The notes beneath the pieces were generated by a model that saw only the letters and a program-made list of their open reading frames with translations, ran no database searches and had not been told where the DNA came from. From the NCBI GenBank assembly GCA_965215185.1, contig OZ244034.1:1536001-1600000 (forward strand): 64,000 nucleotides of DNA, given 5' to 3'. The stretch is from Acidimicrobiia bacterium. GTDB lineage: Bacteria; Actinomycetota; Acidimicrobiia; Spongiisociales; ZC4RG35. Shown piece by piece: positions 7,139 through 22,321 of this stretch (position 1 is its first letter; every line of letters begins with the position of its first letter). The position numbers and the translations under genes are program-made.

Positions 7139-8209
7139 ATGCCGACATCTGGACTCCCTTCAGGAGAACGGCAAGGAACCGTCATGACAGTGACGGGCCC
7201 GGTAGCCGCCTCCGACATTGGAACAACACTCGTTCACGAACACATCTTCCTCGACATGCGACACGCTTACAAGGAGGACAATCCTGACGCTCAGTACGGC
7301 CCACCGGAGATTCACGTGCTGGGAGAATGGCGCCGCGACTACTCAAAGTTCCCGGACTTCATGGTCCTTGACGAAGTCGATCTAGCCATCTCCGAGATAT
7401 CCGAATTCGCCGAGTACGGCGGGAAGACCATCGTGGATGCAACTCCGATCGGTCCTCGCCCTCGATCCCCGCACCTCTACCCGACCGGCATCAGGGCAGT
7501 GTCTTTAGCTGTAGGTATCAATGTGATCGCTGGATGCGGATACTATATCCAGGCTTCCCATCCGGAGTACGTGAGCACGTCAAGTTCCCGGTCCCTGGCC
7601 GAGGGGATCCTCTCCGAGATAGAGGACGGCATCGAGGGGACCGGCATCAGACCTGGTGTGATCGGCGAGATCGGACTAAGCCAGCCCGTTGAAGAAGACG
7701 AGTGGAAGGTCCTCGAAGCCGCATGCGTGGCGCAGAAACAGACGGGCCTCCCGCTCTACATACACCCCTATTTCGGAGCGAGGAGCAGGATCGCTCCCGA
7801 GGTCGCCCATTTCGTACTTCGTAAAGGTGTGGACCCCCAGAAGATCAACATGTGTCATATGGACGGCTACATGAACCTCGACTACCAAAGACGTGTGGCC
7901 GACCTGGGCGTGTTCATCTCATTTGACAATTTCGGCCTGGAGAACTACTACGACTCCATCGACTTCAGCTACAACAGCCACGACTCCCAGCGTCACGAAC
8001 ACTTGCTCCAGTTGCTGGCTCTCGGGTACGGCGATCAGATACTGATCTCCCAGGACACCTGCTACAAGACTCAGCTCATACGGTACGGAGGTTACGGATA
8101 CGCACACATCCTCCGCAATATCGTGCCTGCCCTACGTCATGCCGGGGTTAACGACACAACGTTGGAACGCATCCTGGTCAAGAACCCGCAACAGCTGCTT
8201 AGCCATTAG
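7139..8209 (+). CDS. Phosphotriesterase-related amidohydrolase
   Basis: TVTGPV, TLVHEHI, IVDATP, IGEIG, IH, CHMD, ILISQD, NPQQLL. Confidence 0.92.
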   Translation: MPTSGLPSGERQGTVMTVTGPVAASDIGTTLVHEHIFLDMRHAYKEDNPDAQYGPPEIHVLGEWRRDYSKFPDFMVLDEVDLAISEISEFAEYGGKTIVDATPIGPRPRSPHLYPTGIRAVSLAVGINVIAGCGYYIQASHPEYVSTSSSRSLAEGILSEIEDGIEGTGIRPGVIGEIGLSQPVEEDEWKVLEAACVAQKQTGLPLYIHPYFGARSRIAPEVAHFVLRKGVDPQKINMCHMDGYMNLDYQRRVADLGVFISFDNFGLENYYDSIDFSYNSHDSQRHEHLLQLLALGYGDQILISQDTCYKTQLIRYGGYGYAHILRNIVPALRHAGVNDTTLERILVKNPQQLLSH

Positions 8210-8356
8210 CCCCTGATTCTGGCAGCCCTTCCTCGGGAGGCCGGCCTTGCTCCCGTCGGACCGACCTCCGACAGGACATACCAAGCTCATTCTCTTGCCA
8301 TTTGTCGTTGAGAGGTCCAGAGATGAGACTTAGAACGTCACTGAATCACGCCGATG

Positions 8357-9673
8357 TGAATCGCGCCGGGTTTGGTAGAGACTTTGATGGTCCCCCGGTT
8401 TCGTGGAGTCAGCTCACTTGGATCAGTGGTGTGAAGGTTGTGGTGTTGTTGTGGTTTCTTTCGTATTCGATGGGGGTGCGCATTTCCAGTGCGGTGTGGC
8501 GCTGGTGGCGGTTGTGGAAGATCTCTAGGTACTCGAAGATAGCGTTGGCGAGTTCGATACGGGTTCTCCACCTCCTGCGGTCCAACAGCTCGACTTGCAT
8601 ACGAGCCCAAAACGATTCCATGGTGGCGTTGTCGAAACAGTCTCCAACGGTTCCCATGGACGGAACCAGACCGGATTCGAGGGCCCGTTGGGTGAACGCC
8701 CAGGAGGTGAATTGGGTGCCCTGGTCCGAATGTATGACCGTGCCGGGGTCGGGTTGGCGGTTCCCGATTGCCATACCTAACGCGGAGGTGACCAGTCTGG
8801 AGGTGGCCGTGTTGTCGATCGACCAGCCGACGACCCGGCGGCCCGTACACGTCCAGCACCACCGCGCAGTACACCTTGCGCTTGCCTGGTGGGATGCTCT
8901 GTGATATCGGTCACCCACAGTTGGTCCGGTTCGAAACGGGCGAAGTTGCGGTCGACCAGGTCCACTGGCGTGTCTGCGGGGCGGGTCCGCCGTCTGGGAC
9001 TTCGGTCACCTACTAAGACCAGCTAGACCGGCTCTGCGCATCAGCATCACTACTGCGTTGTGTCCGACGGTTATTCCATGACCCAACCGCAGTTCGGCGT
9101 GCACCCGCCGCGCCCCATAGGTGCCGCATGACTGTTGGTGGATGTGGTAGATCATGTCGGTAAGCCAGGCGTGGCGGATGGAACGGGCTGACGGCGGTCG
9201 AGACCTCCAGGCGTAGAACCCGGACTGTGACACTTCGAGCACTCGACACGCCACCTGGGTGGGAAGCCCTTCGGTTCTCATGGTCCGGATCGCCTGGTAG
9301 CGTCTTTTGGGGACACCACCTGGTCTCCCAGCAGTTCAATAGCCCGTTTCGTCACGGCCAGTTCGGTTTCCCCGACGGCGAGCGGCCCACAGTTCGGCCT
9401 GTTCCTCCGAAGTGGCACCCGGTTGTAGACCGCGGTCGATTCGGTCTTGACGCCGCCAGTTGTAGATCGTCTGATCAGACACCCCCAGATCCGCTGACAA
9501 CGACGCTACCGACCTACCAACTGCAATCAGGTCGAGCACCCTGCGACGGAACTCGGGTGGATATCGATAAGGCATGAAGACTCCTTTCGGGTCAGTCACA
9601 CCACCAATTCAAATAACCCGACTCCACCAAAGTGGGGTACCACCAAACCCTCTATGAAACCCGGCACGGTTCA
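8357..9673 (-). mobile_element. IS3-family insertion sequence, transposase frameshifted (orfA 9575-9336; orfB in pieces 9281-8409)
   Basis: OrfA YPPEFRRRV..QTIYNW; OrfB YGARRVHAEL, WVTDITEH, HSDQGTQFTS, DCFDNATMESFW in three different frames; TGAA...TTCA ends with 54-bp imperfect IR (43/54). Confidence 0.92.
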
Positions 9674-17921: not shown

Positions 17922-18665
17922 ATGAACTTGTCCAGGACCCTCCGTTGCGGGCTGTCAATCGCCGGACTGACGGTGGTTTTCCTCTTCTTTGTCGCCGCTT
18001 GTGGAGGGGAATCCACCCCCGCTCCCGTGCCAGACGTTGATTTGGGCGAATTGCTTTCCAGTGCGGGAGAGAAAATGGCTGCCATGTCGACGGCGAAATT
18101 CAGCATGATCGACGAAAAGGAATCGGGAGCCAAGTTCTTTGGGACAACTTTCAAGAGCATGGAAACAGAAGTAGAGGCTCCCGACAGCTTCAGGATGGTG
18201 GTGGACGTGGAGGCGCCGGGTTTTGGATTTGTGGAGATCGAAATGTTGGCGGTCGGAGACCAGGCCTACATGAAGCTCTCCAAGGACGCGCCGTGGAACC
18301 CCTTGCCCTTGGACCAAGTGCCTTTCAATTTCGCGGGGTTGGGCTTCACCTTGCGCGATCTGCTTACCACGATCAAGGACGGCGCCACCATTACTGGCCG
18401 GGAGTCCGTGCTGGACACCCAGACCATTCGGGTTGAGGCGAACCTTGTTTCTGACCAGTTGTCATCCCTCCTCTCGACCGTGGATTCGGGTCACGCGGTG
18501 GCCTTGACCTTGTGGATTGACGAAACCGAACACGCTTTGCGGCAGATAAAGATCGCGGGCCGCATCTACGACGACGACGCCCCGGAAACCATCCGTATTC
18601 TAACCATTGTTGGTATTGACGTTCCTGTCGACATCCAACTTCCGGATGTCGGATCCGGGTCGTGA
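17922..18665 (+). CDS. LppX/LprAFG-family lipoprotein
   Basis: Lipobox VAAC; ELLSSAGEKM, beta-rich body, TLWIDE..LRQI, PVDIQLP C-terminus. Confidence 0.7.
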   Translation: MNLSRTLRCGLSIAGLTVVFLFFVAACGGESTPAPVPDVDLGELLSSAGEKMAAMSTAKFSMIDEKESGAKFFGTTFKSMETEVEAPDSFRMVVDVEAPGFGFVEIEMLAVGDQAYMKLSKDAPWNPLPLDQVPFNFAGLGFTLRDLLTTIKDGATITGRESVLDTQTIRVEANLVSDQLSSLLSTVDSGHAVALTLWIDETEHALRQIKIAGRIYDDDAPETIRILTIVGIDVPVDIQLPDVGSGS

Positions 18666-20137
18666 GCGGCGTTAGGAATCGTCTCGCCTCCCTGGGTTCT
18701 TCCGAGTCGGTTGTATTAGGAATTCTTTGCCTGGGAGTATTCTCGACCGCCTTGGATCAGACCGTGGTAGTCGCCGCGTTGCCTGGCGTAATGGTGGATT
18801 TGGAGATCCCCCTCACGGACCTGGACAGGGCGTCTTGGATCGTAACCGGGTATCTGGTGGCCTATACCGTGGCCATGCCATTGGGCGGGCGCCTGTCCGA
18901 TGTCCACGGCCGGGTCAAGATGTTCCAAGTGGCCTTGGTCGTGTTCTCCGTCGGATCGGCGTTCGTGGCGCTGGCGCCGAATTTCGGTTGGATTGTTTCC
19001 GCCAGGGTGGTCCAAGCTATTGGGGGAGGCGCCACGGTCCCCATCGGTCTGGCCATGGCAGTGGCAGCCGTATCGTCGCAGAGAAGGGGAATTGCCATAG
19101 GACTGGTGGCGGCGGCTGCTGAAGCCGGGTCCGTCTTGGGCCCTCTTTATGGAGGCGCCATTATCGAGTTGCTCGGCTGGCGGTGGATATTCTGGCTGGA
19201 CATACCCCAGAGCCTCATTCTTATCGCGCTTCTGGCCATCTTGCCGAACCGCGCCAATCCGAAGGCCAAGATGGACTACTTGGGGGCGTTGGTGATGGGA
19301 GGGGCACTCATCTTTCTAACCGCGGGGCTGTCCCAGAGGGGCCTCTTCTCCGCAACTTCTGTTTTCCCGTATCTGCTGGTGGCCGTGGGAGCACTTCTGG
19401 TCGCCGCATTGGTCGTCCTTGAACGACGCACGGATCAGCCTCTGTTGGCCCCTTTCCTGTACAGGTCCAGGGCGTTCCTGTCCTCCAACTGCACCCAGTT
19501 CCTGGTGGGTGTGGCCTTGATCATTGCTTTGGTATCCGTGCCCCTCATGGCAGGCACCGTCATGGAGAGGACGGGATTGGAGAGTGTCCTCTACTTGCTT
19601 CGCCTTACCGTCGCCATTCCGGTGGGGGCGGTGGTGGGAGGCTACATCCTTCGCTGGGCTGGAGTGCGATCGGTGTGTGTTACGGGCCTGGTGTTGATGG
19701 GAACGGGCCTGTTGTTCATGAGTGGTTGGGAGACGCAGGTGGAGGAACTGAGGCTGACCTTGCCCTTGGTATCGGCGGGTCTGGGATTCGGGCTGGTCAT
19801 CCCTCCTATTGGCGTCAGTGCTCTGAGCGCTTCGCCTAGTAATTATTGGGGCGCGGCGGCCTCTTTGGTCACAGCCTCGCGAATGGTGGGGATGGCGTTG
19901 GGGCTGGCCGCCTTGTCCGCTTGGGGCATAGAGCGCTTCTACAGCCTGACTGGCGACTTCGAGCTTGGACCGTCGTTCGAAGAGACCGAGGCAGTGTTGA
20001 TAGGCGCCGGCGTCACCGTGTTTCAGAACCTCTTCATGATCACGGGGGTTCTTTCCCTATTGGCCATCCTGCCGGCCCTGCTGATAAGAGAAGAACATGT
20101 CGAAGAAGACACATTTACCAACGAAGAGAGCCAGTAA
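18662..20137 (+). CDS. DHA2-type 14-TM MFS transporter (P55/Rv1410c-like)
   Basis: ALDQTVV, WIVTGYLVAY..MPLGGRLSDVHGR, ARVVQAIGGGA, GSVLGPLYG; GTGA overlap with the lipoprotein gene. Confidence 0.9.
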   Translation: MSGVRNRLASLGSSESVVLGILCLGVFSTALDQTVVVAALPGVMVDLEIPLTDLDRASWIVTGYLVAYTVAMPLGGRLSDVHGRVKMFQVALVVFSVGSAFVALAPNFGWIVSARVVQAIGGGATVPIGLAMAVAAVSSQRRGIAIGLVAAAAEAGSVLGPLYGGAIIELLGWRWIFWLDIPQSLILIALLAILPNRANPKAKMDYLGALVMGGALIFLTAGLSQRGLFSATSVFPYLLVAVGALLVAALVVLERRTDQPLLAPFLYRSRAFLSSNCTQFLVGVALIIALVSVPLMAGTVMERTGLESVLYLLRLTVAIPVGAVVGGYILRWAGVRSVCVTGLVLMGTGLLFMSGWETQVEELRLTLPLVSAGLGFGLVIPPIGVSALSASPSNYWGAAASLVTASRMVGMALGLAALSAWGIERFYSLTGDFELGPSFEETEAVLIGAGVTVFQNLFMITGVLSLLAILPALLIREEHVEEDTFTNEESQ

Positions 20138-20222
20138 TCGAAGGGACTTATATACCTAGGTTGACAACCAGCCACCCCTTTTGTCGCAGGGGTGGGATAT
20201 TTTTAGGATCGTGGTTCCTTGG

Positions 20223-21533
20223 GTGCAGACGATCCGGCTGAAAGGGCATTGTTCCCGCTCGGCGCACCGTCGTTTGGATGACATCTTCGCGCAGTGTTGC
20301 GAGTTGTATAACGCATGCCTGGAATCATGGAAGGGCACATACCGGTGGTGGAAAGAACACCATCCCGACGAACCCCTTCCCCTAGAACTGAATCAGTCTC
20401 ACTATGACCGTCTGCGGATGTTCACCGATGTACGCAAGGACCATCCTGAGTGGCAGCGTTTGAGCCTTCGAGTGGGGCGCGGAACGTTGCGCCGCTTCGA
20501 CCGGTCTATTCAGGCCTTTTATAAGAGATGTAAGGACCCTTCCAAGAAGGCGGGGTTTCCCCGGTTCAAGCCGCGTCACCGGTGGAAGTCGATAGAGATT
20601 GTGAACGCTGACCGCGGGATGCTCAAAGCTCCGGGAGAGAGAAAGAACCACAGCGAGAAGTGGTGGAGACTACAGGTGAAGGGCGTGCCGTAGATACGGT
20701 TTGAGGACAAACACGACCGCCTCACTACCGCGTTGGAGAGCGGCCGGCTGGTGGAACTGCGAGTGGCCCGCACTCCTCTGCGAGTCGAGATACATGCGGT
20801 CATCAAGCACCCTGACCGCCCACCGGTGGCAGATCCGGTCAATCCCGTCGGTTTGGACAAGGGGCTCAAGTCACGCCTGGTCACTTCCGACGGCGAACAC
20901 CTACCACCCACAACCGTGGATCTGCGACAGGTGTTGCGCGCTCAGCGCCGGTTCAGCAGGTCCGTCAAGGGATCACGGTCTCGCATCAAGAAGCGCAACC
21001 ATCTCGCTAAACAGCACCGCCGCCTACAGGAACAGGCCATCCAGTCGGACTTCCGCCTGGCCGACCGCCTGGTCAAGGCCTACGACGGCATAGCTGCCGA
21101 AAAGCTCAATATCGCCCGACTGCTGAAAACCAAGCTGTTCTCCAAACAGATGTCACAGCAACGCTGGGGATCCTTCGATCTCATACTGGAACACAAAGCC
21201 GCGAAAGCTGGTATCCGGTATGCGGGAGTAAACCCCAGCCACACCTCCACCGACTGTTCCCGATGCGGGCATCACCAAAAGATGCCCCTCAACGTGAGAA
21301 CCTTCCGGTGCGAACAGTGTGGACTGACCATGTGCAGAGACCACAATGCTGCAATCAACGTATGCGCCCGAGGCTATCCCACCTGGGATCCTTGGGGTCG
21401 GGTGGGACATGACCTCGTGTTTCCCGACGCGGTGCGCTCTACAAATCTCTGTTGTAAGACATCTTTCGGCTCAGGCCGGAAGATGCTGGCAGACACCGCA
21501 GAACAGTATCACCTAGACGCTCCGTCAACCTAG
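20223..21533 (+). pseudogene. tnpB: TnpB RNA-guided nuclease interrupted by one in-frame TAG (20691-20693)
   Basis: CELYNACLE, FYKRC..GFPRFK, GVP*IRF continues in frame; VGLDKG (RuvC-I D), IAAEKL (RuvC-II E), TSTDCSRCG..CEQCG, RDHNAAIN (RuvC-III D). Confidence 0.9.
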
Positions 21534-21546
21534 GTATATAAGTCCC
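21429..21546 (+). ncRNA. Putative omegaRNA scaffold overlapping the tnpB 3' end
   Basis: Nested stems gcggtg(21429)/caccgc(21494), tacaa/ttgta, and an 11-bp catctttcggc/gccggaagatg hairpin; position is typical of TnpB reRNA. Confidence 0.45.
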
Positions 21547-21676
21547 TAATCGAAACTGGTCTGTAACGGCGCCCAAGCATACGAAGAAACCTCGTCAATA
21601 GCGGTGTACTGCCACGCCGCACCCTTCCCACCACGGAGGCTTCCCCACTCCCGCCCTCTCCCCTATTCCGACAATA

Positions 21677-22321
21677 TCAAGGAGCGAGCCGTTCCACCAC
21701 CCAGCCACCGTCCAGCAACCGATACTCGAAGCGATCATGGAACCGGTTCGGCCTGCCCTGCCAGAACTCGTAGCAATCCGTCACCATGCGATAGCCGCCC
21801 CACCCGGTAGGGCGAGGAACATCCCCGTCGGGATACTGTCGCCATAGTTCTGCCATCCGTTCCTCCAGCCAGGCCCGGTCGGGCACCGCCTGGCTTTGTG
21901 GAGAGACAACCGCACTCAAACGTGAGCCGGGGGGACGGGACCGGAAATACGCGTCGGACTGCTCGCTGGAGATCTTCTCCACCCGGCCCCCCACCCGCAC
22001 CTGTCGATGAAGCGGCAGCCACAAGAAGACCCCGGCCGCACGAGGGTTCTCGGCCAGTTCCGAACCCTTGCGGCTTTGGTAGTTGGTGTAGAAAACGATC
22101 CCCTGCCGATTGGTTTCCCTCATCAACACCGTCCGCGCCGAGGGTCCGGCATCCCGGCCGGCGGTGGCCAGGATGAAGGCGTGGGGCTCCTGCAATCCCG
22201 CTTCCAACGCCTCTGAGAACCAGCGGGCGAACAACTCGGACGGATCAGCGGGCAGATCAGACCGGGACAGCCCTGCGCTCTCATAGTCGGTGCGAAGGGT
22301 GCGGAGGCGCTCTTGGTCCAT
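21677..22321 (-). CDS. pdxH: Pyridoxamine 5'-phosphate oxidase
   Basis: LATA, PSARTVL, FYTNYQSRKG, YFRSRP, WGGY, EFWQGRPNRFHDR, ERLAP. Confidence 0.96.
   Translation of the reverse strand: MDQERLRTLRTDYESAGLSRSDLPADPSELFARWFSEALEAGLQEPHAFILATAGRDAGPSARTVLMRETNRQGIVFYTNYQSRKGSELAENPRAAGVFLWLPLHRQVRVGGRVEKISSEQSDAYFRSRPPGSRLSAVVSPQSQAVPDRAWLEERMAELWRQYPDGDVPRPTGWGGYRMVTDCYEFWQGRPNRFHDRFEYRLLDGGWVVERLAP

Follow-up and report, generated by a model that had tools for sequence, protein, structure and literature searches.

A non-autonomous element with IS1595-type terminal inverted repeats and TnpB cargo, probably mobilized in trans, in Acidimicrobiia

What kind of mobile element carries tnpB between perfect terminal inverted repeats (TIRs) and a target-site duplication (TSD), and which enzyme moves it, are the questions raised by a locus in a 64,000-nt stretch of DNA from an Acidimicrobiia bacterium (assembly GCA_965215185.1, contig OZ244034.1, positions 1,536,001 to 1,600,000). 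This whole stretch is referred to here as the window and is numbered from its first letter. Solo TnpB elements of the IS1341 type are about 1.3–1.5 kb long, contain tnpB only, have an omegaRNA overlapping the 3' end of that gene and depend on a transposase encoded elsewhere. According to the sections on them in two published accounts (PMC13565253, PMC4810608), IS200/IS605 elements have neither TIRs nor TSDs and are inserted beside a fixed 4–5-nt motif by a Y1 HUH enzyme, and IS607 elements likewise lack both TIRs and TSDs.

The unit in the window measures 1,404 bp, TIRs included. Its left TIR, the 23-bp sequence GGGACTTATATACCTAGGTTGAC (20143–20165, + strand), and its right TIR (21524–21546, − strand) are, on sequence comparison, exact reverse complements of each other, as the original prediction had stated. 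When up to 3 mismatches are allowed, GGGACTTATATACCTAGGTTGAC is found at two window sites only, the two TIRs, the expectation from 100 shuffles being 0.00. In an inverted-repeat search the match comes out one base longer, at 24 nt, since the final base of the left TSD copy happens to be complementary to the initial base of the right copy. Both unstranded copies of the 8-bp TSD, taatcgaa, are read directly (20135–20142 and 21547–21554), the left one being also defined by the empty sites of relatives and by contigs from public runs. The TAA of taatcgaa is the stop codon of an MFS-like transporter open reading frame (ORF) of 491 aa (18662–20137, + strand; ORF list and orthologous ends in relatives), as had been noticed earlier, and since this stop lies within the left TSD copy the gene was left intact by the insertion.

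Comparison with relatives shows the unit to be a genuine insertion. All 16 of the other same-genus genomes have kept the left flank, and the four closest among them (85–93% identity, aligned) all have an uninterrupted site with one TAA(A)TCGAA, which reads ...GAGAGCCAGTAAATCGAAACTGG... and in which the MFS stop runs directly into the right flank. Moreover, contigs from three of four public runs join position 20134 to 21547, the skip of 1412 corresponding to the element plus one TSD copy. In these contigs 8 ambiguous letters fit either side and the shorter sides are 22, 22 and 40 letters long; since these sides are short and the likeness threshold was 90%, the contigs may come from related strains. 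The empty site with a single taatcgaa after the MFS gene, which had been proposed as a check, has therefore been found both in the relatives and in the runs.

The sole Pfam-recognisable content of the element is TnpB, with OrfB_IS605 and Cas12f1-like_TNB in the frame at 20694–21533 (PF07282, 76.4 bits; PF01385, 35 bits). Its translation shows GLDKGL, AAEKLN and RDHNAAIN as well as a CxxC...CxxC finger. In B1, an intact relative from the same genome, the scores are 78.2 bits for PF07282 and 54.3 bits for PF01385, and the motifs GIDVGL, TEDLN and RDVNAAINI align to solved TnpB-type nucleases. B1 scores 191 bits with the NCBIfam model guided_TnpB NF040570 (cut-off 100), and stays under the cut-offs of the IS200_TnpB and IS607_TnpB models. 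The window gene, as judged from the ORF list, Pfam and motifs, covers some 440 codons from a GTG at 20211 (20211–21533, + strand), and its stop codon, TAG at 21531–21533, falls within the right TIR. An in-frame TAG at 20691–20693 (+ strand) cuts it into 170 + 266/279 aa; since the sister copy A2 reads CAG at that codon, this is a nonsense mutation, and the tnpB of the window is a pseudogene. The tnpB-only interior with RuvC residues and zinc finger that had been described from the letters was thus correct as to motifs and domain content, but the frame itself is broken.

In the genome to which the window belongs (one contig, 3.12 Mb, 60.7% G+C, 95% complete), a search allowing up to 3 mismatches gives 15 TIR matches, against 0 for a reversed-pattern control; when up to 5 are allowed, there are 22. 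Pairing them yields seven TnpB elements and a cargo element of 3,513 bp, with several solo ends left over. Among the seven, the window copy (A1) has the nonsense codon and the TSD taatcgaa; A2 has a frameshifted tnpB and no TSD; A3 has a disrupted tnpB N-terminus and a TSD matching at 7/8 positions; B1 has an intact tnpB of 466–468 aa and the TSD attgttta; B2 has an internal tnpB deletion and the TSD taaaggag; C1 and D1, both devoid of a TSD, have open frames of 482 and 429 aa, respectively. Seven of the ten TnpB-domain matches in this genome lie inside TIR-bounded elements. A weak TnpB remnant occurs among the solo ends, at about 472–473 kb, and two others, near 1,468.6–1,469.2 kb, have no TIR-like end close by.

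The B1 protein has relatives at 23 loci, spread over 9 metagenome-assembled genomes (MAGs) of Acidimicrobiia / 'Ca. Spongiisociaceae', and at 33 metagenome loci. Counting only elements of which both ends could be placed, and with duplicates removed, 44 distinct TnpB-only TIR-bounded elements were obtained from the own genome, related Acidimicrobiia MAGs and metagenome contigs. A TSD is present in 30 of them (exact in 24, with one mismatch in 6), so that further copies with 8-bp TSDs of their own, as the original prediction had asked for, do exist. Intact tnpB frames are present in B1, C1, L020, L026–L028 and L042. The end pattern occurs in 6/17 same-genus genomes and in 0/14 other relatives, hence a patchy distribution, as of a mobile element. 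Furthermore, the TIR-bounded architecture recurs in a second, distant TnpB clade (38–39% identity), whose elements measure about 1,250 bp and have ends starting with GGGAATTAT. More distant TnpBs from three other families of the class (L140–L142, E 1e-37 to 1e-41) are flanked by short GC-rich chance inverted repeats, with no convincing TIRs, and the TIR clade therefore seems to be bounded.

The 3,513-bp element of the own genome (C1:952908-956420, L009:1001-4513) has the same TIRs and a perfect TSD, acagaaaa, and sits between two paralogous threonine-aldolase-like genes. It retains the tnpB 3'/RNA end, and on the opposite strand it has ORFs of 640, 170 and 253 aa, in which no Pfam family above threshold and no DDE or recombinase signature was found.

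The intact tnpB copies are under purifying selection, dN/dS (the ratio of nonsynonymous to synonymous substitution rates) being 0.17–0.37 in all ten pairs compared over the first 357–368 aligned codons. The last ~180 nt of the element, which overlap the tnpB 3' end, form a conserved structure (21368–21546, + strand, from tnpB 3' end through right TIR; covariation and folds). On 19 elements RNAalifold predicts 19 pairs, and double compensatory changes occur in 6 of these. In window numbering, a hairpin (21397–21402/21423–21428) has 6 doubly compensated sequences, and in a long-range helix (~21429–21435 with 21492–21499) between 6 and 9 of the 19 sequences are doubly compensated on 4 consecutive pairs. 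An invariant CAGAACAGTAT follows at 21499–21509, 35–45 nt from the right end, and in single-sequence folds the bases after it (21506–21516) form a stem with the middle, variable part of the right TIR. For this terminal stem through the TIR, 78.5% of cells are paired under a structure given by hand, vs 12–46% when it is slid; its covariation is modest, with 8 doubly changed cells, a number matched by 12/500 shuffles. RNAalifold on a MAFFT alignment of the last 45–58 nt of 15 elements gave no pairs, and an Rfam scan of 20000–21700 with E up to 1 returned no family. No RNA run was listed as containing the element. Since the tnpB stop lies inside the TIR and the 3' region pairs with the TIR middle, the predicted RNA runs through the TIR. 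To judge from these alignments and folds, a structured, omegaRNA-like RNA with covarying pairs is encoded by the stretch that begins in the tnpB 3' end and takes in the right TIR, and the TnpB module looks functional in the family; nuclease activity and guide register are predictions. If such an omegaRNA reads out of the element, as it does in other TnpB systems, the right TSD and the bases that follow would supply the guide.

As regards the enzyme, no match to the Y1 HUH transposase model PF01797 was found in the own genome, the control genomes being positive, and a DDE_Tnp_IS1595 ORF is absent from the window element and from all 44 TnpB elements. In a genome of the same genus (G007) there is a 2,924-bp transposase element (L045:7123-10046, TSD ttacgttt), whose TIRs agree at each of the 30 nt shown, GGGAATTATATACCTAAGTGGCGAAACCGG. 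Its 324-aa transposase matches PF12762 (129 bits), PF12760 and the NCBIfam IS1595 model (182.7 bits, cut-off 75), and its passenger gene is DNA-methylase/Mrr-like. Homologues of this transposase occur in 21 of the 151 genomes sampled from the order, and six further complete transposase elements of 2.25–3.1 kb with 8-bp TSDs could be delimited (TSDs of this length in L045, L111, L113, L114, L115, L119 and L120). The cargo of the transposase elements includes a BglII-like endonuclease with an N6/N4 methylase in L114:3230-6025, and a methylase fused to an Mrr-like nuclease domain in L112:1323-3980 and in L045:7123-10046.

Both element kinds make 8-bp AT-rich TSDs, and the first 10 nt of their ends are common except for positions 4–5. 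The middle of the TIR is otherwise variable, and four variants of it are common to transposase and TnpB elements. Counted by eye over the 23 TIR positions, the G007 element shares 22 with a solo end of the own genome (473159–473181), L111 shares 20 with L035 and 21 with D1, L114 shares 20 with L031, and L113 shares 18 with L028. The GGGAATTAT... ends of the distant TnpB clade also resemble those of transposase elements, and one genome, G070, holds both element kinds. In the own genome the only IS1595 DDE trace is a 29.8-bit fragment (C1:2082791-2082958; L019 ~1501–1720), a 96-aa open frame some 50 bp from a GGGACCTATATAC-type end, and this is the relic of a transposase-bearing element. A DDE partner of autonomous type, as had been anticipated, is therefore at hand in the form of IS1595 elements with PF12762 and PF12760, near-identical TIRs and 8-bp TSDs.

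Two observations on these partner elements may be added. The IS1595 elements of the order (also L111:3202-5992) carry restriction-modification (R-M) cargo between their TIRs, whole R-M systems being accommodated in insertion sequences of 2.7–2.9 kb with 8-bp TSDs. In L045 the methylase gene is split at a G run (8372–8764 / 7309–8664; frames of 130 and 451 aa); the frameshift may be real, or the assembly may have a homopolymer error at this point.

Movement of the TnpB elements can be followed in G011, which has six copies at different sites, 95–99.7% identical. An identical 1-nt deletion in the early part of tnpB is present in five of the six, and in the remaining copy that spot is covered by a 56-nt deletion; therefore a tnpB-defective master was amplified, and TnpB is not needed in cis for movement. 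Taking these data together, we consider it likely that the family consists of non-autonomous transposons with IS1595-family TIRs and a TnpB/omegaRNA module, moved by a transposase acting in trans. The original prediction, that TnpB rides in a non-autonomous IS1595-like element, is supported; mobilization in trans by the IS1595 enzyme, with cut-and-paste chemistry, is what we infer for its movement.

The process may be pictured as follows. An IS1595 transposase with zinc ribbon and ISXO2-like DDE domain, made elsewhere in the cell, would bind the GGGRCTTATA... ends and insert the element at AT-rich 8-mers by an 8-bp staggered cut, giving the TSD. The tnpB gene and its 3' RNA would occupy the 'passenger slot' in which the transposase-bearing relatives have, beside the transposase gene, DNA methylases or a BglII-type R-M pair. 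The RNA would be transcribed through the right TIR into the flank and, by analogy with the TnpBs of IS605/IS607 and with Fanzors, could direct TnpB to the empty target, with the result that the element would be copied back or retained. The window element itself would be a decayed copy, in which the TnpB/omegaRNA module fills the whole interior between the IS1595-type TIRs; since its tnpB has a nonsense codon and its genome has only a fragment of an IS1595 transposase, it is probably stranded.

Whether TnpB plays any part in target choice is a question posed by the base next to the TSD. With elements oriented so that tnpB lies on the + strand, the base directly 5' of the left TSD is G in 29/30 TSD-bearing elements and in 39/44 of all (position 20134, + strand, in the window), and also in two more elements read by eye (L139, L128), whereas the mirror position, +9, is C in 4/30 only. 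The empty sites of relatives also have this G, which is therefore a base of the target and not of the element. The TSD sequences are variable and AT-rich, with A or T at positions 1–3, and A is in asymmetric excess over T at the last four positions (59 vs 28). The 3,513-bp element of the own genome is the one TSD-bearing element with C, not G, at −1.

One explanation, plausible though held at somewhat less than even confidence, is that the orientation-locked G is a property of the transposase complex, the two ends being functionally different and one active site preferring a G leaving group, with TnpB as a mere passenger. A G beside the TSD is also found at 8/14 ends of the tnpB-free transposase elements, above the base frequency of about 30% (by eye), but there it is tied neither to one end nor to the orientation of the transposase, while in TnpB elements it keeps to the 5' side of tnpB. 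Among the frameshifted G011 copies, the 4 with a TSD likewise show G at −1, which weighs against a role of TnpB; nevertheless, an intact TnpB of the same genome (L020, 462-aa open frame) could act in trans.

The other explanation, which we put forward tentatively and regard as the less probable of the two, is that TnpB is a retention or homing module on a DDE transposon, with the G as a one-base target-adjacent motif (TAM) and with the TSD and flank as guide. The G stands where a TAM would lie if the guide started at the right boundary of the element; a guide starting there would consist of TSD plus flank and would fit a role of TnpB in retention or homing. As for RNA-guided, TAM-dependent DNA cleavage, the sole hint of it is indirect, namely the footprint of G at −1 in 29/30 elements. 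A one-base TAM would be unusually short, a point in favour of the transposase complex. If TnpB did act in this way, only insertions beside a G and in the right orientation would be re-established once excised, and would hence persist, so that an RNA-guided nuclease would impose target and orientation selectivity on an element whose transposase has little, and the exchange of R-M for TnpB cargo within one TIR chassis would be a swap of interchangeable 'stay-put' devices.

A precedent is offered by Fanzors. As described in the parts of the study of Yoon et al. (2023, NAR, PMC10711439) that deal with their ends, Fanzor1 and Fanzor2* lie in eukaryotic or viral TIR/TSD transposons, often nuclease-only and non-autonomous, the TIR is part of the guide-RNA scaffold, and the TSD is folded into the scaffold, the guide starting beyond it. 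The window family resembles them, on that description, in that TnpB rides in TIR/TSD elements and its RNA runs through the TIR; unlike them, the window element comes from a bacterium, and its protein has the size of a TnpB and canonical motifs. If the TSD were part of the scaffold here too, the TAM would fall in the A-rich 3' part of the TSD; unlike the published Fanzor arrangement, however, the conserved G 5' of the TSD suggests that the guide may start at the TSD.

Several results weigh against mobilization by an IS1595 enzyme. No TSD is found in 14 of the 44 elements, which is most simply explained by recombination between copies as the candidate cause. None of the 8 transposase elements examined holds transposase and tnpB together. 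At positions 4–5 the ends of TnpB elements read GGGAC/GGGGC, vs GGGAA/GGGGA in transposase elements, and in view of this systematic difference recognition by the same enzyme is an assumption. IS1595 DDE matches occur in 3/6 same-genus genomes with TnpB-type ends, vs 5/11 without, and the three include one 29.8-bit fragment and one 163-aa partial; over these 17 genomes the co-occurrence is no better than chance and is not informative. Moreover, G011, G003 and G004 have TnpB elements but no PF12762 match, and G011 is the genome with most copies and the most recent ones. In these genomes the transposase may have been lost, or may lie on unassembled DNA.

The genomes without a PF12762 match and the difference at positions 4–5 favour another possibility, namely a transposase outside the IS1595 family, unrecognised or carried on unassembled plasmid or phage DNA, with the likeness of the ends due to convergence or old ancestry. 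The 3,513-bp element of the own genome, with its TIRs, TSD and three ORFs lacking a Pfam family above threshold, could be counted on this side, but Pfam gives no DDE or recombinase signature for them. In eight G011 regions around TIR-pattern matches, solo and paired, no second transposase was seen by eye, only TnpB elements or host-gene-sized ORFs, which were not run through Pfam; this speaks against the IS1595 partner and against an unrecognised enzyme alike. What chiefly argues against the latter is that four variants of the TIR middle recur pairwise in both element kinds, with 18–22 of 23 positions in common, and that both give 8-bp AT-rich TSDs. We therefore consider a transposase of another family unlikely, and mobilization by an IS1595 enzyme is retained as the preferred explanation.

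It could also be supposed that an IS1341-type TnpB-only element is nested inside an unrelated miniature inverted-repeat transposable element (MITE), to which TIRs and TSD would belong. Nested insertions do occur in the family (an element end upstream of another in L022, insertion into the end of another element in L093 and L117), but the tnpB stop codon lies within the right TIR, the 3' RNA pairs with the variable TIR middle, less than 100 bp separate the left TIR from the start codon and leave no room for separate IS605 ends, the architecture is kept across TnpBs only 38% identical, and the own genome has no Y1 transposase, all of which makes nesting very improbable. Chance repeats around a conventional TnpB gene, for which only the prior expectation that TnpB elements have no TIRs could be adduced, are refuted by the 0/100 shuffles with even two TIR matches, by the 44 elements and by the empty sites.

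Membership in IS200/IS605, IS1341 included, a family with subterminal hairpins in place of TIRs, was considered and rejected, given TIRs in 44/44 elements, an 8-bp TSD in 30/44, variable TSD sequence and no Y1 enzyme. The likeness to IS1341-type elements lies in the length of about 1.3–1.5 kb, the tnpB-only content, the RNA overlapping the 3' end and the dependence on a transposase encoded elsewhere. Members of the IS1595 family are known with passenger genes, and the partner elements described here conform to that family in their zinc-ribbon and ISXO2-like DDE domains, G-rich TIR starts, 8-bp AT-rich TSDs and passengers. The window element differs in having no transposase gene, and in a cargo made up of an RNA-guided nuclease and an RNA folding with the TIR; lacking that gene, it cannot strictly be counted in the IS1595 family. 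The most fitting description is that of a non-autonomous element bounded by IS1595-family TIRs, with TnpB/omegaRNA cargo.

TnpB is thought to be useful to IS605/IS607 elements because their excision is scarless. The part of a 2026 review devoted to this point (PMC13565253) uses scarless excision to account for the rarity of OMEGA systems with DDE transposases. Such associations have nonetheless been reported: the main text of Altae-Tran et al. (2023, PNAS, PMC10691335) describes six DDE-associated TnpB branches, DDE-1 to DDE-6, with inverted terminal repeats in all six and with the tnpB 3' end within 250 bp of the transposon end, and takes solo TnpB ends nearly identical to those of transposase-bearing systems as a sign of trans mobilization. 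As far as that text describes them, the window family is like these branches in having TnpB inside inverted ends and solo ends matching those of transposase-bearing elements, and unlike them in that here no element holds transposase and tnpB together. IS630 is the only DDE partner named in that main text, and ISL2, IS630 and IS1031 are listed in the main text of the 2026 review; 'IS1595' appears nowhere in either main text, and the supplements of PMC10691335 may list an IS1595-linked branch. A literature search on TnpB and IS1595, judged by title and abstract, returned no work on the association; one on TnpB with IS630, IS1031 and ISL2 led only to the 2026 review, and one on ISNwi1 with passenger genes, the subgroup to which the original prediction had likened the ends and which is a putative label here, found nothing. 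The phenomenon itself is thus not new, since DDE-linked TnpBs with inverted ends and trans-mobilized solo copies were published in 2023. New here are the IS1595-type partner, TnpB and R-M as alternative cargo, the TIR-using RNA and the G signature.

The family is a clean example from bacteria of tnpB and its RNA being kept by purifying selection within IS1595-type ends, with dozens of independent insertion sites, empty alleles for comparison and an orientation-locked, testable one-base target signature. In this context, the question of what TnpB does for a TSD-making transposon becomes directly testable. In addition, the family provides compact TnpB variants with the TIR inside the RNA scaffold, and an example of one transposon chassis with alternative cargo, either R-M systems or TnpB.

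Some minor features remain to be described. A sigma-70 promoter scan gave 0 sites. In the A-subfamily copies a GC hairpin with a T-run behind it stands immediately inside the left TIR; in the window (20172–20205, + strand; motif scan) it matches a terminator-like consensus, and where these copies have hairpin and T-run, other subfamilies have a conserved GTGTCACACCC...TANNNT block upstream of the tnpB start. This block is a possible promoter, and there is a TTGACA in the left TIR about 20 nt further upstream. Insertions into or beside the ends of other copies are seen in L022:2865-4964, at the right end of L093 and in L117:9033-11639, one flank of L093 reading as the terminus of another family element. 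In the own genome, a 114-bp inverted pair of TIR-like sequences, each with 5 mismatches to the window TIR, and no TSD (C1:1958086-1958199) may be a MITE-sized remnant. Finally, G004 contains a 571-bp derivative (L128:1501-2071) in which only the tnpB 3'/RNA part is left.

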